From Proteromonas lacertae (Eukaryota): 64,000 nucleotides of DNA. Location of the stretch: NCBI GenBank assembly GCA_002245135.1, contig NGBS01001168.1, forward strand, positions 62,001 through 126,000. The letters run 5' to 3'. Shown piece after piece: positions 9,355 through 57,700 of the stretch. How positions within the stretch are numbered: position 1 is the stretch's first letter; each line of letters opens with the position of its first letter. Under the pieces are notes generated by a model. The model was not told the origin of the DNA. It searched no databases and saw only the letters and a list, made by a program, of their open reading frames with translations. The position numbers and the translations under genes were made by a program.

Positions 9355-10158
9355 ATGAAATTTGTCATTTATTCAGCGATATACCAAGGGTATGTTTTTT
9401 TAAGTAACTAATTTAGAGATAAATATCTTGTTGGAGATCAAATACCTGGATATAATCACGGAAATAATAATTACCAACAAATTGTAACAAAATTATTCGA
9501 TAGATACCCAATCAAAATAACTAAAACTACATTTAAATACGAAGAGTATACTTTTCATGAATAACAAAATCATAGTACTTACGAATTTCATTGTTTTAAA
9601 AAGGGTTTGTTCATATATTTATGTATATCAGAAGCAGATTTTCCAAAAAGACAGTCATATGTATGATCTTTGAAAGAATAACATATTTGTAGAAAATGTT
9701 AGATGAAGTAGCCACAACTTTTGAAAATTCATTTCCCAATCTTTCTACAACTGTATCATCCACAAATTCAACACAATATGATAGTTTCAATATGGAATTG
9801 AGAAAAATTATGAAAAAATTCAATGATCCTTCCTCTGATCCTTTAAGCGCAGCATTAGACAAAGCAGATGAAGTAAAAGGAATAATGTGTGATAATATCG
9901 ACCAGATAATGAGAAATCAGGAACAATTGAGTGTAATAGATACAAAGAGTATGACCCTTCTAAATTCATCAGAAATATCATTTTATTTTATTTTATTTAT
10001 ATATATGTTTATCTTTAATGAAATTGTAACAATTCAATAATAATGCAGGTACTTTGAAGGCATTATTATATGCTAAAAGAATGAAATTAATGATTGCTGC
10101 TGCTGGTATTGGTATTGGTATTGCAGTAGTACTTTTCTTCATATTTGTTGTATTTTAA
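9355..10158 (+). CDS. VAMP7: Longin R-SNARE (VAMP7-like)
   Basis: N-terminal longin-like exons, R-SNARE motif VKGIMCDNIDQIMRNQEQLSVIDTKS and C-terminal TM (IAAAGIGIGIAVVLFFIFVVF*). Two GT-AG introns plus one AT-AA intron. Confidence 0.85.
9975..10029 (+). other. U12-type intron, AT-AA (55 nt), in VAMP7
   Basis: ATATCATTTT...ATCTTTAAT-GAAATTGTAA. Removal gives SSE|QFNNNAGTLK in frame with the TM exon. Confidence 0.75.
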
Positions 10159-10283
10159 TCAAATTCAATTTTTCTTCCCAATATAATAACATCTAACGAA
10201 AAAGAAAACTTTTTATTATTATTATTATTAGTAATTATTTGTAATTTACATTTATATATTTGTTTCTATCAATCTAAGTATAA

Positions 10284-11271
10284 TTAACAGAATAAATCTG
10301 CAGGGCCTTCTTTATCGTTATTCATCATAAATAGATAGTTGCTAGTACCACCATCAGGAAATGCACCACTGCCTGTTGAAGATGTCCCATAAGTTCTTGC
10401 CATTGGGTTTAATTCACTTAATATTTCTCTATCTCTTCGTTCCAATATATCTCCATTATGATATAGCAATTTAATACTTTGTGAGGAATGTAAGTAGACT
10501 GTGTGATAGAGATTTCCATTTTTGGGATGATTATATTTTAATACTGTTTCTATATATAATAATAATAATAATAATATACCATTACCACAAGTTGCTGCAA
10601 GAAATTGTGGTTCTATTAATTTTTGGTTTGTTAAATCAGATCTAGTCAAAAAACAATTAGGATCTTGTTTCTATTATCATCATAATTATTAATATTATTA
10701 TTATACTATTTTTAATATCATTGTATTTAAATTAGCCATTTCTTCATCAATCTTTTCTAGACTTTTTCTCACTCTTTCGCTTTCTGCTGTTATTTCTGAC
10801 TGATCACCTCGTAACGATACACCTCTACAATATAATTAAAAAAATATATGTTTATATATATACTTCCACACAACTGAACCTTTATTTTGTTTTAATTTTT
10901 CTAAAAGACCTATCCCTTCCAGTACATTTGTCACATCGTATAAACGACGTTTCTGTATATTAAGCTTCTGGGCTGCTTCTGTTATATCTATTTGTGAACA
11001 TGTCTATTTTTAAGTATATTATAGTCTAATGGTACTTTAAATAAATCTATGAATTCTGATGCTAATGTTGATAGACTTGCTGCTTTTCTATTTCCATTTG
11101 AATCTAGTTGTTCTCTAATTTGATAAATTAAAGTTCATACGGGTAATCAGGTGATTGAGTAGATACTTTTGGTTTTTTCTAATTTATTAAATAAAGTCAA
11201 GATGATACTGCTGCAGGTTCCTCCAAAGTGGATCGTCTTCTGGTCATAGTGGTGGATTTATGTGAACTCAT
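10284..11271 (-). CDS. E2F: E2F-family transcription factor
   Basis: Spliced reading gives RKAASLSTLASEFIDLFK...IDITEAAQKLNIQKRRLYDVTNVLEGIGLLEK, the E2F DNA-binding signature. Several ~30-nt GT-AG introns. Confidence 0.9.
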
Positions 11272-11438
11272 TGATTATTTGTATTAGTTTAAAATGATAC
11301 GCTATTTAAATAAAGGATCTGGTTGGATAGTTGATAAAAAAATAATTCAAATGAGAATTTCAAGCTACAGTCAAGCCTCCAACAGTTTTTTTCTTTTTTT
11401 ATTAAGTTTTATTCAACATATAGAAGGTATCGGATTAT

Positions 11439-13535
11439 ATGGCGTTAAAATTAGTATACTATTTCTTATATATTTATATTTAGGAAGAAAATCCTTTAGA
11501 AATAATTGATAAACATTTCAAAACTCTTCCTTTTTTTAAGGTATTTAATTAAATAATGATTGTAATATTATGAATAGTATTTTTCAAGTGAAAAAATATC
11601 GAAAATTATTTCATGTTTAAAAATAGAGACAATTAGTCCAGAACAAATTATTTTTCATAAAGGTATATTGTGAAATGTATTATATACTTATAATAGGATG
11701 TTTATATGATAGAATGATTATCCTATATGATGGTATGGTTGAAGTAAAAGATGGAAATTTAACATATTTTACTGGTTTATTAATTCAAGGAACATATGTG
11801 TTCTTAAGAGAGAAAAATGAAAAAGAAGTATATCCGATGACAATAAGCAGTATAAAAGAATGCACAATATACAGTTGTCCAATGTCATTATTAACAGAAT
11901 TAAAACAAGAAATAGAAAGAGAGTTAGAAGAGAATAAAAAGAAATCTATTTATTTATTCTTATCAATACATAAAATGTTTCGTGCTTGTAGTGAAGATGA
12001 ATTATCATATTATTGTACATTTATAGAAGAGAAAAATATAAAAAGTGATACTTTGATTATTGAACAAGATAGAATAACAGATGGAGTATATGTTATTGTA
12101 TCAGGTAAATGTGAGATTCTATATGACAGTTCTGATGGAGGAAGTATATTATTATATTGTTGTTATTATATTAATAGTGTGTAATAAAAATGAAATTATT
12201 GCTACTGTATCTGATGGAACTGTTCTTGGTGCAATGAATGTATTGAAATTATTACAGTTAACTGGAATAAAAACTGATTATGAATTAATACATGATAGAT
12301 ATAAAGAACCACATTTTTACACTGCTAGAACAGTGACACCATGTATTGTTGGTTTTATTAAAGATAAAGATTTTGTTTTAAACATTAGTAATGATGTTTT
12401 TAAAAGAATGGATAGAATTATCAAAAATGATTATAAATGGGTAGAAAGCTGTAAAAATGTAGAAGTAAAAAGTTCATTATGTAGTGATAAACCTGAAATA
12501 GATAGAGTATTCAAAGTTAAGCCAGTTAAACATTATGTTAGATTAGATAAAATAGGAAGAAGTAAATCTGTGAATGAGAATATATTAAGAGAGAATAGTG
12601 AATTGATGAAAGAGAATAGTAATATTCGTAATTTAGTTACTCCACCAGTCGATAATAATTACGGTATAACATGTGAAACAAAAGATAATAAGAAGCAACC
12701 AAATTTGCATGAATGGGATGAAGAAGCTGAAGTGACATATAGCAAAACTGAGAAAGAAAAATGTAATGAACTTCCAAGATTTGGTAAACAATATAAGACA
12801 CTATTACCAGATGATTCAATGGTTGATACTCCCTGGTTGCATCATTTAAGTAGGTATAATTTACCATGGGTATCTCCATTTATGTTTAATGTTAAAAGAC
12901 CACCAGTATATTTTAATATTTTTTATTTATAATTATGATGAAATAGAAACAAAGAGGAGCAATTCGATTGAGTAGTATTCCTAAAAGATATAGAATTGAT
13001 ATGATATTTGATCTTTTTAAATCCTTTTTTGTATATTTCTATTATTATTATATATTATTATGATATAATAGCCTGAAGAGTTATTAACATATAGTGACTA
13101 TTGGGATTTAAAACCAATTTATAATGTCAATGATAGAAGTGAAATTGTTACATTATATATCATCTGTAGAAATGAAAAAGAAAGTCAACAACTCTACAAT
13201 TATCATATTAGAAATAAACTAAAGTTTGAAAGGACTAGTTTAGTTATAAAATTATGTGATCCAGTAGATGCTAAGCATGAATATGATGAGTATAAGAAGA
13301 AAGTAAATGCAATACTAAAGAAAGAAAGAAAAATGAAAGCTAAACCACATTTACCTCCTACTAATATTCATTTTAGTATATATTTATTTAATGTTTTTAT
13401 TTTATAGAGAGTTATGCTGATAGATACAAAGCTCTGCATGGAAGGAAAGTGTATTGTAGAAATTACATTCAATTGTGTGCTGGAGTACCAATACCTGAGG
13501 ATATCGATGATAAAGATTTATATAATTTTAAGTAA
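11439..13535 (+). CDS. Tandem cyclic-nucleotide-binding-domain protein
   Basis: Two CNB-like domains (IFHK..YDRMIILYDGMVEV; IIEQDRITDGVYVIVSGKCEI..GTVLG..TARTVTPC) with about seven GT-AG introns. Confidence 0.7.
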
Positions 13536-13694
13536 GATGTTTTTTTTCGTCTAATTGTATTGTTTTTGTTTTTATTATAGAAGGACAGTTTATGTCAAAC
13601 TTTTGTTTGAAGAATTAAATTTGATTTATGAGAATGAATAACAGTTTAATTCATATTGTAGTCTTTCTACTTGCTTTAAATCAATGCTTGTGTG

Positions 13695-27964: not shown

Positions 27965-29078
27965 ATGAGAAGCAAATCTTGTTGTTTTTGTAATATTGAT
28001 TATTGTAGTTGCGGATCAAATGAGTTACATGAAGCATATGTTCCTAAGTAAGAATTCAATTATCTAAATCTATAGGAGAAAAAGAATTTACTTCCACCTG
28101 AACTGTGTTCAGTGGTCTTTAGGGTTTTTGAGAAAAAATTATAGAGATAAAGACACATATGTTTGTCATTTGTATGATAGTACCTGCAATAAGCTCTGCA
28201 CAATATGTAATAAATGCAATCCTACGATAAAGGGAGATAATTCACACCAATATTACCACTACCATTGTGCTTTGTCAAATAACATACCTATCAACCTAAC
28301 AAGATATGTAGATTTTGTAGATTACTTTAATGAACAAAGAAAAATCGATTGTAAAGAAAAATTACAAGAAAATGAGGAAGAAATAGAATTAGTTGACAAT
28401 TCTTATGATAAAGCAGAAGATAAAGTATCATCTACTCCAACTACTATTTGTGAAGTTGATAGTATAAGTAATGCAGAGCCTTTTTCCTTAGAATCAAGAA
28501 GAGACTCAAAAAAAGTATATTCAATGGTGTTATTATAAAAATAGAGAAAGTATGAAGAAAATGATATTGAACAAGAGAAAGAGAGTAAAAGAGTAAGAAA
28601 ATCAATACTACATATAACAGATAATATCCAAACCAATGGTTACAGTGTGTATAACAACGATGGTATTCATGAAGTTGATACATTTTTACTACAACCAGAC
28701 ATACATAATATAAGTAATGATGATGATGATGTTGATAACAATAATAATAACTCATTTCCAAATGATTATTATATAGTAAATAACTATACAGATACAGATA
28801 ATAATAGTATCAACAATAGCAGTCAATATATTTACTTTTCCAATATTATTGATCTTGAAAGTGATGATGATGATGATGAACCAAATAGTAATTCAGCTTA
28901 TCAACAATATATTAGTGACATAGGAAGAATTAGTAGTGAAGAGGATAGTATTGGCAACTCAGATGATGATTTAGATGATAATAATAATAATAATAATAGT
29001 TTTGATGACCTTGAACCTTTATCCTATAGTAGTAAACAAATTCATTCGATTATATCAAAATTAATTTCATTTGACTAA
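27965..29078 (+). CDS. Extended-PHD (zf-HC5HC2H-like) protein, paralogue 1, with acidic Asn-rich tail
   Basis: CCFC...FHLNCVQWSLGFLRK...CTICNKCNPTIK...YYHYHCA, with two GT-AG introns. Confidence 0.7.
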
Positions 29079-29628
29079 TACAACCATACACCACAAAAAC
29101 AAGCCTACTTCCTGCTACCTATATCTCTTCTGTATTCACGTTTGCCTTCTATATATCTATCTATTTTTAAAAACTTTTATTTTGTTATGCTTTCAAATGA
29201 ATGATTATTGAAAATTACCTATGACCTATCAACATTATCTTTCATTTTTTTCATAAATTATTATTTAATGTGTATCTAATACACTAAATAATATTATCTT
29301 TTGATATAATATATAGAAATAAACTAATTAGCTTAATCTGTATTTATGGAGTTTTCTAATATCTACTTCTGTATATATAGTGCAACATAAACTCATACAT
29401 AAACTATGAGCACAAGAAAAGATAAGCTTATTTACTAAGCAGCAACTATTCAATAAAAGAGAAATAGACTATAAAATAAATATAGTATAATATTTCATAT
29501 GTATACTCCTTGCTTATACTAAAAAAAGCTGTGTCAGATATGTCCTTTCACATCAAAACACCTTCTAAAATAAACAACAAAAATTGTATTTTTTAATTTA
29601 TTTTTATTTTTTGTAGGTTATTTTTATT

Positions 29629-31399
29629 ATGTTTTGTTCATTTTGCACTTATTCTGAAAATCATTTAGGTATGGGACCATTATATCAAGCATTTGTTAAA
29701 AAGTATCTCACATGTTTAATTCTTTTAGGAAGAAGCGCGTATTCTATCACATTGATTGCGTACAGTGGTCCGCAGGTTTGGTTCGTAAAAAGATAGTCGA
29801 CAAGGATGAATTTGTAACTCGTTTATTCGAAATTAGCAAGAAAAAGACATGTTATATATGTGGTTTGGCCTGCCCTACAGTTAAAGTGTTAAAAAACAAG
29901 TATAGCCATATAGAATATTGACTTATAAATAATAGCATTTCTTATTATTACCACTTCATTTGTGCAAATGATGCAGGTATAACAATATCTCCAGACAAGT
30001 TAATAGGAGATATTAATTTCAGAGGTAATAATGAATCATCAGTGTCTATGAATAAAGATCCAATTTCTGTAAAAGTATTATATATTTTTTATCAATATGT
30101 TGAAATAGAGTGAAAAATTAGTTAAGAAAAATGATCAAGAAGAACCTAAGAAAAGAAAGATAGAAAATTCACTTCAAAATGAAACATCAAACAAAAAATG
30201 CAGTCCAAATGGTTCTGAAATTAATCGTATTATAGAAAATAATTATTTAATCTAAATAGATACATTAATAATATCTTCAGCATCCCCAAATGGTTATACA
30301 GTATCTCCATCATTACAAGCAATTATCTCATTCACGTTCTCCAGCATTTATGTCATTACCACCATCAGAAAAGTACTGTGATAATAATAACGAAATGAGT
30401 TATACTCATAATGATATATTATCAGGATATCCAAATTCATTATTTGCAAATGATGATTTAGAGCTATCTTCTCCTTATATATCAGATAAACCAAAAACGA
30501 TAACACCTCCAGATTTCTTATTAGATTCAAAAGAATATAATACTCATTCAAAAGACATAAGTAAACTGATAAGTTCATCATCATCTTCTTCATCAACATC
30601 CTCGCCAGAAGGTGAAAATAATAATAACAACAATATTCTTTTAAGAAACAAGTTGATAAAAGTTAGTAGAGTTATAAATGATAATGGATCATTATCGTCA
30701 TCATCACATTCATCATCTTCATTCTCAATAGAAGGTAAAGAAAAAGAAAATCAAACACATTTTATTGATAATTGTCATATTACAATTAAAACAGATAATA
30801 ATTTAAACATGTTATCTAAAAATTCAGCAATTATTGATCTTAAAAACGTTATAAATGGAAAAAATATAACAAATATAAGCAAATATAATATGCATATTGA
30901 AGAAAGAGATATATTACAGGTGAAAATAACAAGAAAAGAAAAACTAATAAGTGATGGATTATTCATTTGTGTTTATGGTCCAAGTTATTATATGGATTCT
31001 CTTCGTTCAAATGAACCAATGCAAATACCAATAGAAAGAGGATTACCTGAAGATGAATTCATTGATATATTTAACAATTTATACTTGTCACAAGTTAATT
31101 TAATCCAATTATCAGTCTCAGATTATAGTTCAACATGTCCATTGAAGTTATTATTTACAAAATTAGTACAAAAGAAGTTAGTTGGATATTTGGACTTTAA
31201 TGAGTATGAATTATTTATTGTTCCTCATGGTCTCCATCTATTAAAATATGGAAGTTTTAATTTCTTAATTGACAGGTATATGAGAAATGGTCCAGTTATA
31301 CCTGCTTGGATATTGCTAGTAAGTAAAATAAATGGATTATTTGCTCCTACAAATGCTAATAACAATGACAGCAATGCTGATTCTATTAAAAATAATTAA
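29629..31399 (+). CDS. Extended-PHD protein with C-terminal SPOC-like domain, paralogue 2
   Basis: CSFC...YHIDCVQWSAGLVRK...CYICGLACPTVK...YYHFICA, then C-terminal GLFICVYGPS...LVGYLDFNEYELFIVP. Confidence 0.7.
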
Positions 31400-32515: not shown

Positions 32516-33462
32516 TTAATTATTTATAGAAGAAGTATAAGCAACAGTACTACTGTTATTTGTCTTTGATACAAATAAAACCCATGCAGGAACTACAGGT
32601 CCGTTTCTCATATATCGATCAACTATAAAGTGGAATATAGGGCAATTCATCATATTCATTCCATTTGGAACAATGAATAATTCATAATCACTATAATCCA
32701 AGTATCCAACTAAGTTATTCTGGGTTAACTTATTCAATAAAAGCTTCAATGGACAAGTACTTGTATATTCTTTTGCTAGTAATCGTATGATACTGATCTG
32801 TGATGTAGGAACATCATTAAAGATATCATTAAAGTCTTTTTCAGGTATTCCTCTGTCTAGTTGAATATCCATAGGTGCATTTGAACGTAATGCGTCCATA
32901 TAACTACTTGGACCATATAAACACACAAATAAACCTTCGCATATCACTTTATCCTTATCCATAATATTCACTTCTAACATATCTCTTGCTTCAATAAACA
33001 TATTGAATTTAATAATATCACCACTTGTGAGGTTAAATATTCTCCTGTAATTTATTGTGTGATTATTATTATTATTATTATTATTATTGTCATTGTTATT
33101 ATTAGGAGTAACATCACTATTTGAGTTACTGTCTGGAGGTAATTGATACACAACACTATTATTACTATTATTATTAATTGGTAAATATGCTGTTATTAAA
33201 CTCCTATTATTACTTTCATAATCAGTTTCTATTTCAAAATCACCGTAAACATTAATTGGATTCGAAAGACTATTATCAGATAATGATAGTGAGGATGATG
33301 AAGATTTTGATGGAGTAACATCTGATGATTCAATAATGTATGGAGATGAAGTAATACATGAAGTAGTACATGATGATGATTGGATATCCTCATCACCAGT
33401 TTTTCCATTCTTACTTCTCCTTTTAATTATTTCACTTTTTAACAAATGTTTAGATGATATGA

Positions 33463-33494
<32 letters not shown>

Positions 33495-34639
33495 TCAGTT
33501 GTTATTGTTGTTGGTGTTTGTAAATCCTGTTGTTGTTGTTGCTGTTTCTTGGTTTGGATTTGTTGTTTTTGTTGAGAAGTCATTGAAGAAACTATTGGAG
33601 AAGGTTTAAGTGGTAAAATAGGAAATAATCGTCTATCAGAAGATGTATTGTATTGGCTTAGAGTTGGTATTTCCACAGGTATTTGTGAAAGGAGTGGTGT
33701 TAATTGTTCTTCCTGCTGCTGTTCTATTTGTTGTAGTTTTGATGGATGATGATGATGAAGTGGTGGTAATGGTGGTGGTGGTGGATATTGTCTTGGTCTA
33801 TCTTCATTCTCTTTAAAAAAGTATAAAACTGCATCATCTGAAATATTGCTGTTATTCTTGTGTAATGGAGAAGAGAGAGGTGATAATGAATCTGTATGAA
33901 TGTTATTCACTTGTTGTTGTTGTTGTTGTTCTAGTATCATATTACTATCATTAAATGGATAAGGTAAATCATTTATTTCAAAATTAATTTGTTTTTGTTT
34001 TTTTGACTCTTGTATATTTACTGCATCTAATCCTTCCTCTTCTTCTGATAATGTTGCTGAGGAGGAAGAAGTAATTTCGTCAGTATTTCTCTAAATTTAA
34101 TAAATCGTGTTTATAATATGTATACCTTTCTCTTTTGACTATTTGTATCATCTTTTTGTGATGCTACGACATCATTTTGTGTTACATCAACTATATTAAC
34201 TGCATTATTTACTAAACTTTGATTTTCAGCTAACTCCTTATCAAAATTTAACTTCTCGACACGATATTCATTATCAATTACTACTTTATTAGCCACAGCA
34301 CACGTATAGTGATAATACATTTTGCTATACAAAATATTAATACTATTCTTACCCCGAGCTTTTATCAACTAAAGTTGGTCCAGTTTTCTTACACACAACA
34401 CACTCTCTCTTGGAAGCTACTTCGTATAAACTTGTAATATAGGTTGCCTTATCAGTATATCTTTTTCTTAGAACTCCTTTCGACCACATGACGCAATTTA
34501 AATGATAGAAAATTCGTTTTCGTCTAATGCTTTTTATAAAGAATCTATACTTTACTTTATAAGCCACAAATAATTGGCCTAAATCATTCTCTCCAAATTT
34601 TTTCTCACAAAAAGTGCAAGTTGAAACCTTCGCAGACAT
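32516..34639 (-). CDS. Extended-PHD protein with C-terminal SPOC-like domain, paralogue 3
   Basis: CTFC...YHLNCVMWSKGVLRK...CVVCKKTGPTL...YYHYTCA, a Q/N/P-rich linker and a C-terminal domain strongly similar to paralogue 2. Confidence 0.7.
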
Positions 34640-35543: not shown

Positions 35544-35976
35544 TTAACAAAACGCTCTAAAAATGTCATTGTATATTTGATATGTACCATTAGCTTGTAT
35601 TAATTGAAATGTTTCTGAGAAGTGAATAGGTTCATTTGAGCCAACAAACTAAAAATAAAAAATATCCTTCAATACTTGAACTTTTCCTACTACAGTACAA
35701 AACATATCACTTGGATCTTTTGATGGTTGGTAATCCATACAATCAATCACATGTTTCGACACAGGCATAGACTAAAGTAATAAATACTATAATACGTTTA
35801 TTTTAGCTAACACATTAGCTTGACCAACAACAGCTTCTCCGGCAAAGGTTAACATGGCATTTGGGTGCTAAATTCATTTAAATGATTTGAAATACGAAAA
35901 TTTGTGCTAACATAGCTCTATTCTCATCAAAATAATTATAATAACTTTGTGCAAATTGTTTTGCGATTGAATCCAT
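35544..35976 (-). CDS. NTF2: Nuclear transport factor 2 (absent from the ORF track)
   Basis: Four exons: MDSIAKQFAQSYYNYFDENRAMLAQIF|HPNAMLTFAGEAVVGQANVLAKIN|...DYQP...VVGKVQ|...HFSETFQL...IYNDIFR, matching the NTF2 motifs. Confidence 0.9.
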
Positions 35977-44459: not shown

Positions 44460-45796
44460 ATGTCACAATCTACACCACCATTAGTGTTTGAAATAAAAGC
44501 TAAATGTAAAAGAGCTAGAGCTTCAACTTTGACATTAAGACATTGGTCCAATACTTACACCTGTGTTTATGCCTGTTGGAACTAAAGGTATAATACTATT
44601 ATGTTGGATTTATCTTATTTAAATAGGAACTATAAAAGGATTAACTTCAGAACAAGTCTATTCAGAACCATTAGATGCTCAAATTATTCTGGGAAACACA
44701 TATCATCTTAGTTCACATCCAGGTTCTGATCAAATAGCAGAATTTGGAGGATTACACAAGTTTATGAATTGGCCTAGAAATCTATTGACAGATAGTGGTG
44801 GATTTCAAATGGTATCGCTTTTAGATTTAGCAGAAATAACAGAAGAAGGAGTGAAATTCAGAAATCCAAATGATGGAAAAGAAATGTTATTAACACCAGA
44901 AGAATCGATCAGATGTCAAGTATAGCTAAATAATAAACTATTCATTTTATATAAATAGAATAATATAGGAGCTGATATAATAATGGCTTTAGATGATGTT
45001 GTTCATAGTTGTACTCCAGGATATGAACGATTTAAAGAAGCGACACATCGTACATTACGTTGGATAGATAGATGTATAGCTGCACACAAACGTCCAAACG
45101 ATCAGAATCTATTTGGTATTTGTCAAGGAGGATTAGACACAAGTGAAGGTGGATTAAGAGAAATCTGTTTAAAAGGAATGTTAGAAAGATCAGCTCATTT
45201 ACCAGGTTATGCAATTGGTGGATTAGCAGGTGGTGAAGATAAAGAATCCTTCTGGAGAGTAGTAGAGCAAGCTACAAGATATTTACCAGAAGATAAACCA
45301 AGATATCTAATGGGTGTAGGATATCCAGTTGATATTGTTGTTTGTACAGCGTTAGGAGTTGATATGTATGATTGTGTCTATCCAACAAGGACTGCACGGT
45401 TTGGTACAGCAATGGTACCATGGGGTACGTTGAGATTGAATAGTAATGAATGTACAAATGATTTGAGACCAATTGATCCAGATTGTGGATGTAATACTTG
45501 TAAAGTATATATATATATATATATACATAAATATTTATTTCATATATAAATAGAGTTATTCAAGAGCAGTATTGAAAAGACTATGTAAACGTGAAGCACT
45601 TGGAGCAATATTAGTAACACATCATAATATTTATTATATGATTCATTTTATGCGATCTTTGAGACAAAGTATAATTGATGGTAGATTTCCTGAGTATGTA
45701 CAGGAGTTTTTTGATAGACAATTTCCTGATAAGAATTATCCTTCATGGTGTGTTGATGCTTTACATGTTGCTGGTATTGATTTGAAGAAAGAATAG
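44460..45796 (+). CDS. QTRT1: Queuine tRNA-ribosyltransferase catalytic subunit
   Basis: [60 protein letters not shown] and Zn ligands CGCNTC...H. Three GT-AG introns. Confidence 0.95.
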
Positions 45797-45926
45797 AATT
45801 AAGAATTAGTATTCATTTAATTTGTGTGGTTTTTAAGTAAATATTCTTTAATAAACATTTTTTCTATTTGCTTATTTACAAATAATTCAAAATACAACAA
45901 AAGCAACAATGTAAATTATTAATTAC

Positions 45927-47165: not shown

Positions 47166-47223
47166 TTTTAAATATCAAAACAGAATCAAACCTGCATCGT
47201 TATTCTTTTTTGTTTTTTAAAAA

Positions 47224-48818
47224 ATGTCTTCTGTCAAAGTTCCTGGAATTGATCCAATGTTTTATGCGTTGAGTAAATATCGTAGAAGAAAGTATGATGA
47301 GTGTATAACTATCTGCACAGAGTTGTTAGAGGTAAATCCTCTTGATCAAGCTGTTTGGTTTTTGAAAACAAGAGCTTTGACAGCAAAATCATGGATAGAT
47401 GATACAGAACTTGAAGAAGAAGGTGTAGCTGAAGTATTACTTGATGAACATGGTATAACTGAAGCTCCTCGTCCAGGTACATCCTTAAACAACCCTAATA
47501 GACCAACTACTGGTGTAGATCAATCAATAAGACCTGTGAGTGCTAGTGGCAGACCAATTACAGGATTTCTTCGACCTGGTACAAGTAGTCATGGAAGTGC
47601 AAGTCGTGGAAATACAGTAGATGGTGCATTCCGTTCAAATAGACCAGGTACATCACGTCCAATGACTTCCTTGGGAAGACAAGTTAGATTAGGAACAGCT
47701 TCAATGAGATCTGATCCTGGTGGTGTATTTATCAATATAGACAGATTAGATATGAATAAATACGCACGAAGACCAACCTTAGCGAAGGCACTATGTGATT
47801 ATTTAATATATCATGAACATAATCCAAGAAAAGCAATGGAATTAGCAGCAAAAGCAACTCAAGTATGTGAGTTTAAAGATTGGTGGTGGAAAGCGAGATT
47901 AGGTAAATGTTATTATCAATTAGGACTGTATAGAGATGCAGAGAAACAGTATAAAAGTGCATTAAGACAACAACCAATATCTTTTTTTTTTGGATGATTT
48001 TTTCATTTTGAATATTTTTTCTTTAATTCTTGATTTAATTGATTACTACTGTTTTAGAATTATCAAAGATCTATATTAGATTGGATTTACCTAATAATGC
48101 CTTGGAGTTATTCCAAGATTCAATTAATCAATATATTACAGATCCACAGTTATTATTAGGTATTGGTAGAATATATGATATGCTAAATAATGTTGATAAG
48201 AGTATAGAATACTATAAGAAAGTCTTACAATACGATTCTTCTAATATTGAAGCATTAGCTAATTTAGCCTCACATCACTTTTATTCTGACCAACCAGAAA
48301 TCGCTTTAAGATATTATAGAAGGTTATTACAGATGGGAGTAACTCAGAATAGCGAATTATGGAATAATATGGGATTGTGCTGTTATTATTCATCTCAATA
48401 TGATTTAGCATTGACTTGCTTTGAAAGAGCTATCAATTTAGGCACAGATGATACATTGCCAGATATATGGTATAATATAGGACAAATTGCTATTTCTTTG
48501 GGTGAGAGTGGGTTAGCTTATCAATGCTTCAAAATATGTGTTAGTTTAGATAATAACCACATTGAAGCATACAATAATTTAGGTATTTTGGAATTAAGGA
48601 AAGCTTCCATTGATGCTGCTAAAGCTAATTTCAGAACAGCACAACAGAATAATGATCATATCTATGAACCATTCTATAATTCTGCTTTGTTATCGTATAA
48701 AATGGGTGATTTCCAAGAAAGTTATAAGAATGTGGAGAAATCATTAGAAATATATCCAGAACATTCTGATTCTCAAGAATTGATGAAACAATTAAAACAG
48801 CATTTCACATCTATTTAA
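47224..48818 (+). CDS. BBS8: BBSome subunit BBS8 (TPR protein)
   Basis: PRPGTSL, RPITGFLRPGT, VRLGTASM, DWWWKARLGKCYYQLG and TPR repeats. Two exons separated only by an AT-AA intron. Confidence 0.95.
47977..48038 (+). other. U12-type intron, AT-AA (62 nt), in BBS8
   Basis: ATATCTTTTT...TTCTTTAAT-TCTTGATTTAA. Removal gives KSALRQQP|LITTVLELSK. The interval contains no GT. Confidence 0.85.
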
Positions 48819-48986
48819 ATTATTATTTTTGATATTATTGTTCTTTGTTTATATGAATAAGCAATGCATATAATGGTAATTAATAGTATACAATAATGAA
48901 ACTAAGAAGAAATATCTCAACTGTAAATTATCAATAAAAAACTAACCGTTTTATTGATTTGACAAACAAACATTTTATTTTTTAAA

Positions 48987-50296
48987 ATGTCTTCATCTTC
49001 TGGACCTGAGCTTCTATACCCTAGAGAGTTCTATACTGAAACATTCTCAGATAGCATATTTCGTATAGACACGAGATATCAAAATCTTCAACCAATTGGC
49101 CATGGTTCTTACGGAACTGTATGTTCAGCAGACGATACAGTATATTAAAAAGTATATATATATATTCGCTAGTTGACTGGCAAGAAGGTTGCAGTTAAGA
49201 AAATTACCAACATGTTTGAAGATCTGGTGGATGCAAAAAGAATAGTAGTATGTGCATATGTTTTATTATATTTATATATAGCGTGAGGAGAAATTGCTTA
49301 AGCATTTAGGTGAACATAAGAATATTGTTGGATTAGTGGATCTATTTGCACAGCCATATGGTACTGAAGAGTTTGAAGATCTATATATGATAATGGAATT
49401 GTACGAATGTGATTTAGATCGAATATTATCCAGTGATCAAGAATTATCTGAACAACATATTCAATATTTCTTAGCTCAGGTATTAAGAGCAGTTAAATAT
49501 ATTCATTCTGCAAATATATCATTTTTTCTTACAAAAATAAGTAAATTAATTTCTTTAATTTTGTTGTTGTAAGTATTACATCGAGATTTAAAACCTCAGA
49601 ATTTATTGGTTAATGCAAATTGCGATTTAGCTGTATAAATGAATATATTTATTCTTAAAATAGATATGTGATTTTGGATTAGGACGTGGAATATCAGACG
49701 AAGTAGAGAATCCTTCCAAATCCGACAAACTAACATCCTACGTAGTAACAAGATGGTACAGAGCTCCAGAAATCATATTAGAATGCAACAATTACGGTAA
49801 AGCAGTGGATATGTGGAGTGTAGGATGTATTTTCGCTGAGATGTTAAGAAAGAAACCATTTTTAAAAGGAAGAGATTATATGCACCAATTGAAATTGATT
49901 CTAAGAGTTTGCGGTAAACCATCTGAAGAAGAATTAGAATGGATTCCTGACCATGAAGCTAGAAATACTGTATTAAATATGGATTCTGAATCGAGTGTTG
50001 AATTCCACGAATATTTCCCTGATTCATCACCTGAAGCTGTTAATTTATTGAAAAAAATGTTAAAGTTCAATCCAAATGAAAGAATCACTGATCAAGAAGC
50101 ATTAGATCATCCATTTTTACGAAAATTCCATCGTGTAAGTGAAGAAATAAGTTGTAGAGAACCATTTGACTTTGGTTTTGAGAAAGGATATGGCGAAGAA
50201 ATACCTCAAGATGTTTTACAAAAAACTACATTTGATGATATTTTATATTATGATAAAATATATAAGAAATTGGTAGGAGATAGACCTGGAAAGTAG
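48987..50296 (+). CDS. Mitogen-activated protein kinase (TSY activation loop)
   Basis: IGHGSYGTV, VAVKK, HRDLKP, ICDFGL and LTSYVVTRWYRAPE. Three GT-AG introns plus one AT-AA intron. Confidence 0.93.
49516..49572 (+). other. U12-type intron, AT-AA (57 nt), in MAPK
   Basis: ATATCATTTT...TTCTTTAAT-TTTGTTGTTGTAA. Removal restores YIHSAN|VLHRDLKP exactly. Confidence 0.9.
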
Positions 50297-50479
50297 AACT
50301 CTTTTGTAGTAAGTTATAATAATAATATTTAGAATTCCTTTACTTTTTATTATATATATATTCAAATAATAGCAGTTATAAATCATTTTCAAAACTCCTA
50401 TATTTTATTAATTATGTTGTTTTTATGTGGATTTACAAAAATAATGTTACAATTATTATAAAAAGACAGATTAAAATAT

Positions 50480-50827
50480 TTAAACGGTAGGATTGATATT
50501 CATTCTAGCGACTCTAGTGTAATCATCGTGAATTTCATTATCATCATCACTTGATATAGTATTCATTATCTTCTCTCTCACTATAATAATAATAATAATA
50601 ACATAAATATAATATAAATACTAGCAGCAGTTTCTGCATTATTAACCAAAAAAGGAAAAAAGTAATTTATATCTAAAAAACTCCAATTCAAATTTTCCCA
50701 TAATAATTTCCATGTTAATTCTTCTGTAGCTACTGTAGGTCCACGAGCTATATAATTACAATATAATATAATATATACTATCATCACTATTAGCATTATC
50801 TCTTGGTGAAACATTACTCTCAATTGA

Positions 50828-50878
<51 letters not shown>

Positions 50879-52334
50879 TGACAAATGACTTAACTTACAA
50901 ACTGGAGCTAAAGATGAACCAACAATAAATATAGAAAATATAATATAACATGTAGTCATTCCTACGATTAAATAACTTTGACTACCATCTAATATTTGTT
51001 CTAATCCTTTGATTGCTAATGCATAACTCATTGAACCTCTTGGACCAGCATATGATACAACAAACATCATATTCTTACTGATTTTATTCTCTCTGAATAG
51101 ATTAGCTAACCAACAGGATGGATATACTGACATAAATCTTGATATAAATACAATACAAGTTGTACAAATCATAAGAGCTGGATTTTGACGAATTATATTT
51201 AATATAGAAACCATTGAAACTCCTAAAATAACGAAAGTTAGAGTTTCTGAAATCATTGATAATAAACTATATAATCTTCTAAAGAAGTGACGATTGAATT
51301 CACCATTAAAGAAAAATTTACAAAATTATAAAATAAAAAATAAAATGATATCTTTTAGGCGACATATTTTGTGTAGTATACCATGACATTACTATTCCAC
51401 AAAATAACATTGCAACAATTCCACTCATATCACATCCATCAGCAAATAAATAACATACAAATGGAATTAATAACAGTAAAGCTCGTTCTATGTCTTTATT
51501 TTCAGGTTTTGATAGATTTGTATATTTGAGAAATAAAGATGCAAAAACACCTACTACAATTCCACAACTTAATGAACCTAGGAAAATACTGAAGAAATTA
51601 TAAAAACCATAAAAAAGAGATTTTAATGTAAATGGTAAATATTGAAAATTTAATAGCGACTTGTACAATACCATAGCTACAGCATCATTAAACATACTTT
51701 CACCAAATATTAAAGCATATAATGTATCATCAACTCCAAGTGAAGTGAATAATGTTAATACTGAAATAGTATCAGTAGCAGAGATTATTGATCCAAACAA
51801 TAAGCAGTTTATCATTGAAAAGGACCTTATTATACCAAGATAAGTAGATATAAATAACAATAATCCAACAAAAATTGTTGTTAATGTTGTATTTATAAAT
51901 GCTAATATTAATATTGCTCCTAGATTTTGGAAAAACTTCACATTTTGCATATTAAAACTATATGAATATATTATTAAACACAAATTATACCCTGAATCAA
52001 ATATAATTATTGGAAGAAGGAAAAAGAAGAAAATATTTGATTCAAATACCAGATACTTCTCCATTAAATGTGATAACATACTTTTATTATCTGATAAATG
52101 GACCATTAACGATAACACGAAACCAATAATAATATACAATCCAGGTTCTGGAATATATTCACATGACCAATCTCTCAATTTATAACTACATCATATAATT
52201 CATAAATCTATATACGCAACAATCAACGATAGGATTAAGCCTATTAAGAATAAAAGTATGGCAAATGATTCAGCAGACTCTATTTCATCTGTGCTGATAG
52301 TGACATTGTTTTCTACTTCTAATAATCCCCTCAT
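50480..52334 (-). CDS. Na+/H+ exchanger, CPA1 family (endosomal/Golgi NHE6-8-like)
   Basis: FFFFLLPIIIFDSG, FGSIISATD, LIFGESMFNDAVAMVLY, SGIVAMLFCGI and AGPRG motifs. GT-AG introns (one in frame, 33 nt) plus one AT-AA intron. Confidence 0.92.
50827..50876. repeat. (AAT)n microsatellite encoding poly-Asn in NHE
   Basis: Long ATT run on the + strand. Similar poly-N/poly-Q tracts occur near 33060-33100 and 33460-33545. Confidence 0.9.
51294..51351 (-). other. U12-type intron, AT-AA (58 nt), in NHE
   Basis: Minus strand ATATCATTTT...TTCTTTAAT-GGTGAATTCAA. Phase-2 removal gives NMSPKS-RHFFRRLYSLLSMISET. Confidence 0.85.
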
Positions 52335-52559
52335 TTTTGGGATTTACTGAAACGACACTTTCTGAAATGTTCATGAAACATTCTTCACAGATCAAATACT
52401 AAGTATTAATTACTACTCGGCTTACTCTGTGTATATTTACAATTATAAACACAAACAACAAAGCCATCAACAAATGTTACATTCATTTATGAATTTATTC
52501 CCATTATCTACTCAAATACATAAAAATATAGAGATAACCTTCATAAATTAAATAATATT

Positions 52560-54266
52560 CTACTTATTACAAATGTTACAAAAATAAAACAGAGATTCAT
52601 CAAGTTTATCAGTTTTGTTGAATGAAAAACAGTTACACCACCAATAACACTTATGCATATTCTCTTTGTTTAATAAATCTGCTTTTATATCAAAAACTGA
52701 GTTTAACAACACAGAAAACAACATTTGAATGTTGGTATTTGACTTATCCAAATCATCACAATTTCCTTCTTGAAATGGATTAGTTAAAGGCCAATGAAGA
52801 TAAGAGTATTCATTAAAACCATAATAATATTCATCATTCTCTTCTAACTCATCTCCTTTATACAAATAATACTTCGGTTTCCCTGCATTTCTAATAAATT
52901 GACAAGATGCTTTCCATCCAACATTATTTCCTCTACAAGGATATATAAACCATTTACCACAAAAATCTTTCTCTTTTTCACATCTTAATCTTAACTGTAA
53001 TATATCATTATAACTATGAGAATAATAAATATTCTTATTAAATGATTCATCACTACAAATATCGAAAATAGTTTGATAATCATTGTATATATCATTCTTT
53101 TCACTACATATAACATCATATTCATTGTTTTTTGTATTGTTATTCATTTCATCACATTTTATATTTGATATAAACACTATATCTTTATCTTTTGTTTGAT
53201 ATTTCTGAATATTGCTATTCATATTGTTTATTTTTAATCCCTGGACTATTTTACAATATTCAACGAGATTCTTAACCACATCAATTGAATCTTTTTCATA
53301 AGTAGTTTCATTTACAGATATAGGATTTAACAACCCTTTACACCATCCTAAATTAAACAAATTTGTTTTTTCATAGTTAAAATACACTTCATAATCATAC
53401 AACAGATTGAAATACAACGTATAATATGTATGTGGGAAAAAATTAATATCTTTATTAAACTTTACAGTTGAATATAATGTTTTATAATTAGGAGCAAATT
53501 GATTGTTTTGTGGTTTTTGTATCCATGTTTTATATAAATATTCACTTCCATAACTATAGGAAAATTCTATATTATCTGACATTAAATCAGATGGAATTGA
53601 TTGACTATTACTCATAATCCATTTTTCAGCTGAATATCTATCGCCATTATATCCATCAAAACCAGCAGTATATCTTTTACCAAATATTGTATATTTTGGT
53701 TGTTTTAATGTTTTAATATAACTGCATTTCGACCACCACATATTCCCTGAGTAATGTCTATATGGTAGCAATGAATATCTTGATCCACATACATCAGCAC
53801 CATGATGTAACTTTCTTATACAATTATCATAATTCTTAATCACATAATAAATTAACATCTTTCTCAATTCACTATTCTCTCTGCTGTTGTGATATGATCC
53901 TTTGAAATGAATGTATAACACATAATTATCTTCATTTTCATCATCATTACAATAACTCATTATATTTTCTAATACATTAAATTCATCAAAATTCGGTAAT
54001 ACTTCAATACTCTTAAATCCATACCCTCTTAAAATTTCTTCTGTTTGAATATCTCTCACTATAGAAATTCCATCTGAATAAAACAATAATTGTGATTCGT
54101 TTAACGCATTCATAAACTCTTCATACACTAGAGAATCGGATGGTTTCCATGCATTTAAGAATACAGCTTTTTTATGTATATCTTTTGATAAATATTTCCT
54201 TTTAATAGCATAAAATGAAATATATAATATGAATATTAGAAGAAAAGAGATAAGCCAAATAAACAT
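52560..54266 (-). CDS. Intronless type II membrane protein, putative glycosyltransferase-like
   Basis: N-terminal TM, then YVLYIHFKGS...HYSGNMWWSKCSYIKTL...RYSAEKWI motifs. Confidence 0.6.
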   Translation of the reverse strand: MFIWLISFLLIFILYISFYAIKRKYLSKDIHKKAVFLNAWKPSDSLVYEEFMNALNESQLLFYSDGISIVRDIQTEEILRGYGFKSIEVLPNFDEFNVLENIMSYCNDDENEDNYVLYIHFKGSYHNSRENSELRKMLIYYVIKNYDNCIRKLHHGADVCGSRYSLLPYRHYSGNMWWSKCSYIKTLKQPKYTIFGKRYTAGFDGYNGDRYSAEKWIMSNSQSIPSDLMSDNIEFSYSYGSEYLYKTWIQKPQNNQFAPNYKTLYSTVKFNKDINFFPHTYYTLYFNLLYDYEVYFNYEKTNLFNLGWCKGLLNPISVNETTYEKDSIDVVKNLVEYCKIVQGLKINNMNSNIQKYQTKDKDIVFISNIKCDEMNNNTKNNEYDVICSEKNDIYNDYQTIFDICSDESFNKNIYYSHSYNDILQLRLRCEKEKDFCGKWFIYPCRGNNVGWKASCQFIRNAGKPKYYLYKGDELEENDEYYYGFNEYSYLHWPLTNPFQEGNCDDLDKSNTNIQMLFSVLLNSVFDIKADLLNKENMHKCYWWCNCFSFNKTDKLDESLFYFCNICNK

Positions 54267-54713
54267 GATTTTTCAAATTAACTAACACAACAACCACAGT
54301 TAGTTTTATAAATCTTTTAACTTTCTGCTTATATGTAAATTTGTTTGTGCTTCTCTTGCTGGATTCTTTTATTCCCAAAATTAATAATGAGGCTAAAATA
54401 TTATCACTTTTCTATATAACATAATTAATCATTTTCATTTTGAATTGAATTAGATGTATTATTTGCTATATTTGATAATTTGTATTTATTGATTATATTT
54501 ACCAACAATTATTCTATATATTTTGAAAAATAATCTATTATCATCCATATTTTCAAAAATAATAATAACAGATTTACATCTATTTAACTTATATATTATT
54601 CTTAACTATATTTTTGTTTTTAAAATACCTTTATCTGCATCATTTAAAGAGATTTTTTAAAAATAAAAAACTTGGCTTGACTGTTTTTATTTTTTATTTC
54701 CCAATATCTTGTA

Positions 54714-57700
54714 ATGAATTCTAGCAGTAGGCCCCAAAGTGGTCGTATCATTTATATGTCATATTGATATCTTATAGATCGAAAATCTTTGATGGACACA
54801 GCTTTTGCTTCTGGAAGTGTTTCACCTATGCGTCGTCTGTCAAAAATACCATCTGGTAGTCAGGCACCATTAGCTAGAAGAGTGAGTAGGTTAAGCAATC
54901 CCGGTACTTCTGTTGTACATACAAATCCTGTTAGAAAACTTGTATCTATAAATAATTATAATCATTTTAATAGCCTCCAGAAGAAGTTGAAGAGGGTGAT
55001 ACACCTAGTAATGCTCTATCAAAGTATTTATTTAAATTGGGTAAAACATGTCAGCTTTCCTACAGGTGGAAGATATGAAAAACGGAATACTAGCCGTTTT
55101 AAGTAATTTTCTAATAGCTAAACCTATAACTAGTGAAAGTGCAGATAATATAGAAAATGCCATTTTGTTGAATAGATGGATGAATAAAAACCCATTGCCA
55201 GATGTATATATATATACAGTAATAATTATATATAAATAGAAAGAAATATTAGACTTGTCTATGAAATGTTTAAAGAAATTATCATTCTTATTTGAACCTT
55301 ATAAATCATTATTGAATATAGTATATAGAATAATCGCATTTTCATGTTATGATTCAATTAATATAAACCAAATAAACCAATGTAATTGTTATGAAATATT
55401 AGAACCCTATTATTTAATTATACATAATTTTATTGAAGAAAGAAAACAACTTGAATCATCAACCAATAATAATTTAAATAATAATAATAATGAAGTAAAT
55501 CCAATAGATACAATTAAGGATATTTATTTATCATTATCCGATAGTAAGAAGATTGGAGTATTATCGATGTTATGTAGAATGTATGGAAGTGATAGTGAAC
55601 TGAGTAATGATTTAATGTCAAATATAAATGTATTAATATTATTCATTTATATTTCTATAATATATTAGCCATTACAAAGATCAATATTAATAAAAAAACA
55701 AATATCATTAATAGTGAAGTTAATGAAGAGTAATGATAATAATATTGATATTGAAGTAATGAGGAGTTTATGGTTTAATGAATCTGATTTCCATAATGTT
55801 TTTGTATTACTTGGTTCAGCAGGAAGAGAGTATGTTAGGAATGGGAAATATACAGAATATTCTGATAAAAATATATCCGTTGATATGGGATGTTTGACTT
55901 GTAAACCATATGGAGATGATAATAATATGTTGAAAGAGAAATCCATTTTATATATCTTTTTATTGTAATAATAATTTATGTTTTTTTTATTTTCTTTAAT
56001 TTTAGTTTTTGTTACTGAATAATGATTTAAATGTAGTTGAAGGAAGAGATACAAAAGTAAGTGAAGAATATAACTCATTATTATCAATGTATAATGAATT
56101 AGAAACTAAAAAGAAAAGAACAATGAAATGAAGTTAAACAACTTACTAGTAATTATGAAAGAATATCAATGATAGAAGCACCAGTTCCAGTAAAAGACTT
56201 AGTATTTATTCATATTTTTATTATGATAATAGACAATAAGAGAAATAGATGAAAGAATATCACTAGATACAAAATTAGAATTATTTACTTATTACTTATC
56301 AAATAACAATAATAAAAGTTTAGCTGATTTGACACTTTATGCTCAAGAAATATTTTGTGGTATAAAGTATGAGAATATGAGTGTTATTATTGATTTCTTT
56401 ATGAAATATATACAGAATACAACTTATTTGGTTGATATTTATAAATTTATGAATGATTTAGTGAAAGAAAAACCAAAACAACTAACTATAGAAGAAACAG
56501 ATAATGACAATGAAAATGTACAAAAGACAGAGAAAGAGTTAGAAGAAGAAGCAAAATTATTGAAAGAAAAAATGATTGAGGAATTACCAAGATATGAATT
56601 TTCATATAAGAGTATATTCAAACAATAATATCCTCTTTTTTATAATTCAATATTATCAATGTTGTCTTTAATTTATTATTACTCTGAATCAAAAATACCT
56701 AATTCAACCAAATAAATTACCTAATTTTGGTCTTTATTCAATGTCTCATGTATTTTATCATTATATTAATATGTATAGTCTCACTATTCAGCATCAACAG
56801 ATACAATCAGTAAAGAAGAATTACATCAAATTATTTCACATATTTATATCAATATATATAATGAATATGATATGCCTGAATTTGATGTATTTACTACAGC
56901 ATTTCAAACTCTATTCTTAATTTATGGTTTACCACAAATCATTTATATAAAAATATCAGAAATAATAAAGTCTTGTCAAAAACATTACTTAAATGATAAA
57001 TATATTGAATTATTTTGTGAATTATTTGGAATTAAAAAGTGTTGTAAAATACAATGTTATCATAGAGTATATTATAATCCAGAAGATTTGAATACTTTTC
57101 TTAGTTTCATTAAATTAATGTATATATTTATTGTGATTATCTTATTATGTAGTTATAAAAAAGATTCTAATATAGAATTGAAAAATCATGAATTGAAATT
57201 AGATTATAATACTTATTTCATTGTATATAAGTATATTAATATATAATAATAATAGTTATCAGATAAAATCTATGAATTTCACAGTCAAGAGATATATAAT
57301 GATTATATCAATAGTTTAGATTCATTTATACACAAATCCAAAGATGTAAATGAAGGTAAGAATTATATTGATTTATACTCTGCTATACTTAATTTAATTA
57401 TTTATAAACATTATGATGAAAATTTAGATTTATTAAACAAATCTGCAATACCAATTCAAAAACATTTTAGAGGTTATATTGTCAGAAAGCAATATTATGA
57501 AATTGTTAAACTTTCAACCATTAAACTGTTAAATAAAACATTTATTCAAATAACAAAGACAAATAATATGAGTATTGATGATTTCAAAAACAATATTCAC
57601 ATAATGAGTAAGGAGAATGAAATAGATTTATCGTTTTTATCTGATCTGTTCGTAGATTGTATTGAATTATCTCAACATTATAACGATGATGGATTGTGTG

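Follow-up and report, generated by a model that had tools for sequence, protein, structure and literature searches.

Putative U12-type introns with mostly AT-AA ends in a 64-kb genomic window of a probable relative of Blastocystis

The analysis of a 64-kb genomic window, which is the whole stretch of DNA considered in this work, has revealed six short segments in protein-coding genes that are likely U12-type introns; the minor spliceosome excising them would take either A or C as the final intron base (estimated probability about 0.83). The six segments follow the single design announced in the original prediction, with AT...AM ends and 55-64 nt at coordinates as originally given, and they are longer than all 124 modelled GT-AG introns. 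Motif anatomy and protein homology give good support to their U12-type identity, and what is new is how many of the ends are AA and how densely the introns occur locally.

Introns, host genes and junctions

The six introns (i1-i6) and the genes that contain them are the following:

9355..10158, plus strand: VAMP7-like R-SNARE, 220 aa, three GT-AG introns and i1 (Pfam Synaptobrevin; gene model)
9975..10029, plus strand: i1, AT-AA, 55 nt, phase 0, within the SNARE motif of the VAMP7-like longin R-SNARE; branch motif 10012-10019
47224..48818, plus strand: BBS8/TTC8 (flagellar BBSome subunit), 511 aa (homolog search, best 62%; gene model)
47977..48038, plus strand: i2, AT-AA, 62 nt, phase 0, sole intron of BBS8/TTC8; branch motif 48020-48027
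48987..50296, plus strand: MAP kinase, 385 aa, three GT-AG introns and i3 (homology; gene model)
49516..49572, plus strand: i3, AT-AA, 57 nt, phase 0, immediately upstream of the MAP kinase catalytic loop; branch motif 49552-49559
50480..52334, minus strand: Na+/H+ exchanger (NHE6/8-like), about 544 aa, five GT-AG introns and i4 (homology; gene model)
51294..51351, minus strand: i4, AT-AA, 58 nt, phase 2; branch motif 51312-51305
54714..57840, plus strand: protein with a C-terminal IQ motif, host of i5 and i6 (gene models)
55952..56015, plus strand: i5, probable AT-AC, 64 nt, phase 1; branch motif 55993-56000
56628..56682, plus strand: i6, probable AT-AC, 55 nt, phase 2; branch motif 56665-56672

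Removal of the intron restores a conserved protein at the four sites comparable with homologs (i1-i4, 4/4), and alignment gives good support to codon-exact AT-AA junctions in the VAMP7, BBS8, MAPK and NHE genes. The AA reading of i1 leaves a residue count matched by 20/20 full-length VAMP7 homologs, the AA end of i2 gives the 11-residue spacing found in 40 of the 41 homologs that match both anchors, and the AA junction of i4 allows a gap-free alignment in 27/28 NHE homologs. When the i3 junction was placed on PDB 5ci6_A, the upstream exon extended to residue 159 and the downstream exon started from residue 160, which corresponds to 153/154 in 6dtl_A and 147/148 in 7w5c_A. Of the four AA and two AC ends originally proposed, the former are fixed by homology, whereas the latter (i5 and i6) are probable, their basis being frame and motif spacing rather than homology. 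The i5 intron is recognized by its motifs, T-rich body and frame. Retention of i6 produces a stop at the donor, whereas once it is excised the frame continues into the following GT-AG-bounded exon; an alternative in-frame AA end located 6 nt later was preferred by one gene model, and another model chose AC. Searches with the i5/i6 host protein found no homolog, and the protein atlas gave no answer. The frame of this gene is apparently broken by one base near 56126, unless two adjacent genes are present, and the five host genes initially counted hold if the break is an assembly error and become six otherwise. As had been anticipated, GT-AG-only prediction mis-builds these genes, which was seen in a GT-AG-only gene model; in a region of this kind, about 5 in every 37 genes would be mis-built by gene finders restricted to GT-AG or AT-AC introns.

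Motif pattern, proposed recognition and alternative splice sites

A strict search of both strands of the 64-kb window for ATATC(A/T/C)T with a downstream TCTTTAAT gave exactly 6 matches, which are the six sites and nothing else. The spacing between the donor motif and TCTTTAAT is 36-43 nt, and the distance from the last base of TCTTTAAT to the end of the intron is 10, 11, 13, 11, 15 and 10 nt in i1-i6, in agreement with the 10-15 nt originally noted. Block shuffles (n=300) produced a mean of 0.32 matches (maximum 3) for a spacing of 30-50 nt and 0.87 (maximum 5) for 23-78 nt, and Markov models produced means of 0.6-1.2 (maximum 4), a chance test that overstates significance because the pattern was defined from the same six segments. 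Independent support is provided by the reading-frame break found at 6/6 sites and by the presence of the donor 36-43 nt upstream at 6 of the 12 TCTTTAAT sites in the window. Relaxed patterns gave 13 and 34 matches, none of them at a further frame break in the gene models, and only the six minor-type introns were called in the refined gene models. Two U12 calls of the first gene model, both on the minus strand, were dropped: at 35583 an NTF2-like gene ends before the site, and at 62758 an LRR frame reads through.

All six donors (6/6) read ATATC from +1 to +5 and have T at +7, and 5/6 also have T at +8; position +6 may be A, T or C and is not C in 5/6. The TCTTTAAT motif, present in 6/6, differs from the canonical branch motif (TTCCTTRAC-like) by two C-to-T changes and was found in 0/133 modelled GT-AG introns. 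All six introns (6/6) have Y at -3 and A at -2, matching the YAC register, and no in-frame YAG for the ATATC donor lies within 12 nt at any of the six sites. The predicted lack of a YAG acceptor is thus confirmed within this distance, but the predicted lack of a polypyrimidine tract holds loosely, the stretch between branch motif and acceptor being 62% T. No G-type minor intron was found in the window, nor any major intron starting with GTATC and carrying the branch motif; GTATC is at the start of 5/109 confident major introns, fitting the intron composition (about 6% C, with T as the commonest base).

According to established minor-spliceosome biology, the donor would be read by U11 and then by U6atac, position +6 being free here, and U12 snRNA would pair with TCTTTAAT, bulging the branch A. 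As acceptor, the Y-A-N some 10-15 nt beyond the branch motif would be chosen, without any YAG of the U2AF type. Constraint on the final base would then be weak, and it could drift from C to A in a genome with such C-poor introns; since T, in spite of its abundance, is absent from this position in 6/6, A and C are probably both preferred there. With the U12 core motif that we take to be canonical, TCTTTAAT pairs through G-U pairs at -4.0 kcal/mol, compared to -6.7 kcal/mol for the canonical branch site, and with a changed core at -4.3 kcal/mol; as pairing energy does not separate the canonical and changed cores, co-evolution is not claimed. The best reading of these features is a lineage rich in A-type introns in which the last base would have drifted from C to A.

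Other readings of the ends have been weighed against this one. Use of GT-AG or GC-AG sites by the major spliceosome, with the U12-like motifs as relics, is very unlikely. A GT-AG-only model does have in-frame paths through i1-i5, and in the MAPK gene the alternative 49541-49573 has the usual size (33 nt), is in frame and shares the acceptor region; however, this one would add 8 residues just ahead of the catalytic loop of the kinase, the VAMP7, BBS8 and NHE genes would need introns of 100, 101 and 115 nt with loss of 15, 13 and 19 conserved residues, a 5-nt exon would be required at i5, the gene would be split at i6, and relics would not hold both motifs intact in 6/6. If the AA ends were assembly artefacts, the true ends would be AC, AG or AT with one base missing per acceptor. 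Single-base frame breaks are indeed found at 8380, 30322, 56126 and 2799 and in a tRNA-guanine transglycosylase gene near 44541, and a base lost from a two-letter run would shift the end by one at all four sites. The probable single-base assembly errors are nevertheless 5-11 in the 47 kb of coding sequence of the window, and at 1.1-2.3 errors per 10 kb the probability of four of six acceptors being affected within 12 nt is p < 1e-9, with about 0.5-1% for any one of the four; moreover, the observed ends hold the Y-A-N register, whereas correction would bring A to -3 at all four sites. Assembly errors are too few to explain four AA ends, and an artefact is regarded as extremely improbable. The least credible alternative is a displacement of the splice sites one base downstream at both ends, giving another non-canonical class (TA...AC, TA...AT, TA...AG and TA...AT). 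Such a slide keeps the frame by construction and at BBS8 yields Met, as in 31/41 homologs, where AT-AA yields Leu, but it generates an in-frame stop at i5 and i6, places Arg at the NHE junction, a position occupied by S, T, A, G or C in 28/28 homologs, and replaces one type of end by four mixed ends. We know of no spliceosome that begins introns at TA.

Host lineage, intron age and known minor-intron systems

In a PRP6 tree obtained by a quick search, with long and compositionally biased branches, the window sequence groups with Blastocystis (SH-aLRT 98), and the host, which has retained flagellar genes, probably belongs to a flagellated lineage that is sister to Blastocystis (Opalinata). None of five reading frames of the window (0/5) had an exact match in the protein collection, so that it provides no independent sequence copy. 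The VAMP7 intron is common to relatives at 81%, 65% and 49% identity, at the same codon, and is also present in a paralog. Read-through gene calls of the relatives contain I-S-F, the translated ATATCNTTY donor, at that codon, and P0296 and P0319 keep 14 extra codons (42 nt), the last one being Tyr, which implies that the intron ends in AC or AT. This retained stretch has the mean length given for Blastocystis ST1 minor introns (PMC10639083). P0318, a member of the P0290 cluster, was set aside as an unrelated bacterial-type ATPase. When metagenomes were searched for minor-type donors at the codon of the MAPK intron, 34 matches were obtained, 0/34 in a kinase gene, and all were treated as chance. 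[quoted passage not shown] Intron positions were compared with a human list only: the NHE site lies about 60 codons from the AT-AC site of human SLC9A6-9, the MAPK site coincides with none of those inspected in human MAPK and NLK genes (6/12 MAPK rows plus MAPK1), and the list has no TTC8, BBS or VAMP entry. In view of the VAMP7 intron of the relatives, the introns are probably lineage-specific gains older than this species.

Blastocystis ST1 has 346 minor introns among 35,412 (1.0%), 77% of them AT-AC and 49% in phase 0, with a mean of 42 nt, and all four minor snRNAs and seven proteins have been identified (PMC5608401; PMC10639083). The six introns resemble those of this probable sister in being short and from an A-type-rich set (6/6 A-type here) with a high phase-0 share (3/6), beside GT-AG introns of about 30 nt. 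They differ in frequency (6/130 here), in length (55-64 nt) and in their ends, which are typically AT-AC in ST1, with no mention of an AT-AA class in the parts of those sources available to us, and include four AT-AA here. Physarum polycephalum has 20,899 minor introns (about 12%), mostly GT-AG, a TTTGA branch with compensated U12 snRNA and transposon-like termini, AT-AA making up 27% of about 1,014 non-canonical introns, which by arithmetic is about 1% of its minor introns (10.1101/2020.10.12.336362). High density, an altered branch motif, positions mostly unlike human (here at the sites compared) and numerous non-canonical ends with AT-AA among them are shared with Physarum, but the six introns described here are AT-AN and have no transposon-like termini. 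In animals and plants, A-type minor introns are known to vary in their last base (PMC8280824), the non-canonical end most often found in conserved minor introns is AT-AA, all non-canonical ends together account for about 4% of minor introns (PMC8280824; PMC1557818; PMC10639083), and 3 human AT-AA minor introns are given in Table 2 of PMC1557818. The ATATC donor, the branch near the acceptor and the variable last base are like those of animal and plant A-type introns, whereas +6 is C and the branch CCTTAAC-like there, compared to A/T/C and CTTTAAT here. The distance from known systems was therefore overstated in the original prediction, with about 1% in Blastocystis ST1, about 12% in Physarum and the variable last base already known. 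A literature search, mostly outside subscription journals, found no description of an AT-AA-dominated genome and nothing linking the minor spliceosome to Proteromonas.

Intron density, origin and significance

Minor-type introns represent 6/130 modelled introns in the window (4.6%, CI 1.7-9.8%). The 124 modelled GT-AG introns have a median of 33 nt and a maximum of 50, in a model whose length prior favours short introns, with typical lengths of about 26-42 nt and GTA...YAG ends in 115/124. An Rfam search of the 64-kb window at E 0.1 gave 0 matches; neither minor snRNAs nor U11/U12 proteins were found in the window, which is uninformative for the rest of the genome.

An origin like that proposed for Physarum, by recent insertion of a single small transposon, would fit the narrow size range and the positions absent from the human list, but it is unlikely: 0/15 intron pairs are above shuffles, neither terminal inverted repeats nor target duplications were found, and both a paralog and divergent relatives have the VAMP7 intron. 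Insertion in a burst long ago is a separate possibility. Concerning extent, an independent expansion of minor introns throughout the genome, to several per cent of all introns, almost all A-type and with AT-AA dominant over AT-AC, is tentatively given nearly even odds, and would correspond to the order of 30-200 minor introns per Mb of gene-dense sequence. It is also possible, although we would bet against it, that the minor introns are real but locally clustered, with a genome-wide level of about 1%, as in Blastocystis, and AT-AC as the main form, which is compatible with the U12-type reading and bears on extrapolation alone. A stretch of 8.7 kb contains five of the six sites (p about 0.009 against modelled intron positions; 0.034 at one per gene), the window was chosen for its unusual look, and the exact 95% interval for the AA share of six is wide (22-96%). 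On the other hand, 6/130 has p = 0.002 at the ST1 rate before allowing for selection of the window, and finding four AA ends among six has p = 4e-5 if the non-canonical share is 4% and p = 0.03 even if all non-AT-AC introns of ST1 (23%) were AT-AA; furthermore, the introns are in unrelated genes and their bodies are alike in composition only (15/15 pairs not above shuffles).

This lineage may be the first with AT-AA as the usual form of minor intron. If the genome-wide reading is true, it would be the first known organism that routinely uses the A-A terminal nucleotide pair in the minor spliceosome, and the second large minor-intron expansion after Physarum, without a transposon signature. Acceptor choice and persistence of A-type introns have been studied so far on a handful of human exceptions, and an AT-AA-rich genome would be a natural experiment on a freed last base, involving U12, U6atac, Prp8, ZRSR2 and CENATAC. 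The gain of a new minor intron is regarded as an extremely rare event, and such a genome would therefore test the suggestion of recent gain made for Blastocystis. This suggestion, and the less efficient splicing of A-type introns, are described in PMC10639083 and PMC8280824, respectively. Gene finders limited to GT-AG or AT-AC introns would mis-build flagellar genes such as BBS8, which serve for the reconstruction of gene loss in Blastocystis.

Common design of the six segments

A scan of both strands of the window for TCTTTAAT downstream of an ATATC(A/T/C)T donor motif has revealed six matches only, which are precisely the following segments, all present with the common donor and branch design that the original prediction had described:

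9975-10029, plus strand: i1, in a VAMP7-like SNARE gene
47977-48038, plus strand: i2, in BBS8/TTC8
49516-49572, plus strand: i3, in a MAP kinase (MAPK) gene
51294-51351, minus strand: i4, in a Na+/H+ exchanger (NHE) gene
55952-56015, plus strand: i5, in a fifth host gene (54714-57840)
56628-56682, plus strand: i6, in the same gene as i5

At the six sites TCTTTAAT starts 36-43 nt past the donor motif start, the spacing permitted in the scan being much broader, and a donor at this distance accompanies 6 of the 12 TCTTTAAT sites of the whole window. In 300 block shuffles (30-50 nt spacing) chance matches averaged 0.32 and never exceeded 3, a generous test because the pattern was derived from the same six segments; stronger and independent support is given by the reading frame, which is broken at all six, and by the above share of TCTTTAAT sites with a donor at this distance. 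Every donor has ATATC plus T at +7, +9 and +10, position +6 being free (three A, two T and one C), and the 3' ends are Y-A-A in four segments and T-A-C in two, 10-15 nt after the end of the branch motif. Judged by these sequence tests, the six segments are U12-type introns, and the feature is real.

According to parts of PMC8280824 and PMC1874599, the minor spliceosome recognises an extended donor and branch site and is less stringent at the 3' site, and A-type introns may end in any base. In the proposed mechanism, U11 and U6atac would recognise the ATATCNT donor, U12 would bind TCTTTAAT, whose pairing with the canonical U12 core is possible via G-U pairs (-4.0 vs -6.7 kcal/mol), and the acceptor would be Y-A-N about 10-15 nt downstream. 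The C content of the window introns is 6%, given which a weakly constrained last base would drift off C; the absence of T at this base points to a preference for A and C alike. The six introns show nothing to indicate a transposon family.

Exon junctions and alternative explanations

Four host genes were named by Pfam and homolog searches, and their junctions were compared with the AT-AA reading. In BBS8 (120 homologs, 41 with both anchor patterns), 11 residues separate the anchors in 40 of 41 homologs, the number predicted by the AT-AA end of i2, whereas adjacent in-frame ends give 10 residues, or 12 including a stop. The upstream MAPK exon extends to residue 159 of PDB 5ci6_A, the next exon resumes at 160, and the two exons likewise adjoin in 6dtl_A and 7w5c_A. 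In NHE, 27 of 28 homologs align to the AT-AA reading free of gaps, the remaining one being aberrant beyond the junction. Among 29 VAMP7 matches, five long repeat proteins were excluded; of the 24 kept, the residue count agrees in all 20 full-length homologs, and the other four are read-through gene calls. No homolog was found for the fifth host; for i5 and i6, frame and spacing suggest an AC end, and the gene models allow an alternative in-frame AA end for i6, 6 nt further on. Of the four AA and two AC ends originally claimed, the homolog junctions uphold the four AA ends.

No frame-keeping GT/GC-AG pair exists within 15 nt at five sites, and the two options in NHE require 82-85 nt. A gene model with U12 introns disallowed, in which GT-AG splicing replaces them, needs introns of 100-115 nt in three genes, at a cost of 13-19 conserved residues; in the kinase it takes a 33-nt GT-AG intron, whereby 8 residues are added before the catalytic loop, and this path is a real cryptic option. 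This intron (49541-49573) is nested within i3 and keeps the frame; through it a minor intron might be converted to the major type. Splice sites shifted one base at both ends would place Met at the BBS8 junction, as in 31 of 41 homologs, instead of the Leu of the AT-AA reading, the sole datum counted against the latter. The same slide gives Arg in NHE, where all 28 homologs have a small residue, and stops at i5 and i6, and it was therefore rejected as a general rule.

Assembly errors have also been considered. With frameshifts allowed, a gene model placed between 5 and 11 probable breaks of one base in the window (47,232 coding bases); most likely these are assembly errors, at a coding-sequence rate of about 1-2 per 10 kb. 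Apparent breaks in otherwise intact genes lie at 44541, 8380 (minus), 30322, 56126 and 2799 (minus), with weaker candidates at 7516, 11357 and 54193 (minus); one falls in a tRNA-guanine transglycosylase gene, at its conserved start, and one separates i5 from i6. At the observed rate, the probability of an error in any one of the four AA ends is about 0.5-1%, and of errors at four of six acceptors below 1e-9, so random errors cannot account for the AA class; a systematic error directed at AA acceptors is possible. The probability that the six segments are minor introns, four of them with AT-AA ends, is put at about 0.83.

Density and comparison with other minor introns

The refined gene model of the window contains 37 genes, 124 GT-AG introns (median 33 nt, maximum 50, 115 of 124 GTA...YAG, sizes favoured by the length prior of the model) and the six minor introns, 4.6% of modelled introns (interval 1.7-9.8%). 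No G-type minor introns were found in the window. Against the Blastocystis ST1 rate (346/35,412) the p value is 0.002, unadjusted for the choice of the window on account of these introns. Of the six minor introns, five, in four genes, lie inside 8.7 kb (47977-56682; p about 0.009 against major-intron positions, 0.034 at one per gene), a clustering that exceeds the major-intron prediction, and hence 4.6% may fail to hold genome-wide. A whole genome rich in minor introns and dominated by AT-AA is a tentative proposal, at slightly less than even odds.

The confident major introns are a very uniform, short class, with GTAT starts in 103 of 109, TAG ends in 105 of 109 and a median of 33 nt; a CTRAY branch motif occurs in only 6 of 109.

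Blastocystis ST1 has 253-346 short minor introns, mainly AT-AC (77%; parts of PMC10639083 and PMC5608401, section 8 and S1 Table), whereas the window has four AT-AA and two probable AT-AC. About 1% of the 20,899 Physarum polycephalum minor introns are AT-AA (10.1101/2020.10.12.336362, in part), all non-canonical ends together make about 4% in animals and plants (PMC10639083, section 30), and for humans 3 AT-AA minor introns are listed (PMC1557818, Table 2). The AT-AA share of the window is far outside these values (p = 4e-5 for four of six at a 4% share), with a wide interval of 22-96%. A literature search, with most subscription journals outside its scope, yielded no paper describing minor introns in this lineage or a genome dominated by AT-AA.

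Lineage and intron history

A quick maximum-likelihood PRP6 tree of 39 rows (the window and 38 of 120 matches, picked for spread) grouped the window and two relatives (86% and 62%) with Blastocystis sp. Blastoise (SH-aLRT 98), on long, compositionally biased branches; the best named matches are mostly oomycetes. Both relatives occur in public run assemblies (P0150/P0270-P0279, 11 sequences at 86%; P0151/P0280-P0282, four at 62%), so a comparative intron study has relatives to draw on. The short GTAT...TAG introns are similar to those of Blastocystis, which measure 30 nt. A flagellum, lost in all Blastocystis (PMC10690189, in part), is suggested by the BBS8 and sperm-tail PG-repeat genes. Tree, introns and flagellar genes would fit a Proteromonas-like opalinatan.

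The VAMP7 intron lies at the same codon in relatives, whose gene calls, made on unspliced contigs, continue into I-S-F, which is how an ATATCNTTY donor translates. The sequences of the VAMP7 search that reach it are:

seven of the P0284 cluster, about 81% identity
P0290 and P0296/P0319, 65%
P0286, paralog-like, 49%

In P0294/P0320 the reading is continuous. P0296 reads through 14 additional codons (42 nt) ending with Tyr, so its intron ends in AC or AT; orthologous VAMP7 introns therefore vary in the last base, i1 having AA.

A search of the human minor introns tabulated in PMC8280824 (supplements 1 and 4) gave no entry for TTC8, BBS or VAMP genes. The AT-AC intron of human SLC9A6-9 corresponds to a site about 60 codons upstream of i4, where the window gene has no intron, and human MAPK and NLK minor introns (6 of 12 MAPK rows, plus MAPK1 and NLK) are at codons other than that of i3. 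NHE (50480-52334, minus) and MAPK (48987-50296) thus have no intron at the compared human sites, yet one minor intron each elsewhere. The difference in position from the human sites compared favours gain within the lineage.

Among other genes of the window, a transcription factor gene (10284-11271, minus), presumably E2F-like from a sequence motif, has six GT-AG introns and no minor ones. Three neighbouring genes (27965-31399, plus; 32516-34639, minus) with similar N-terminal Cys/His zinc-finger (PHD-like) starts are perhaps a local paralog set.
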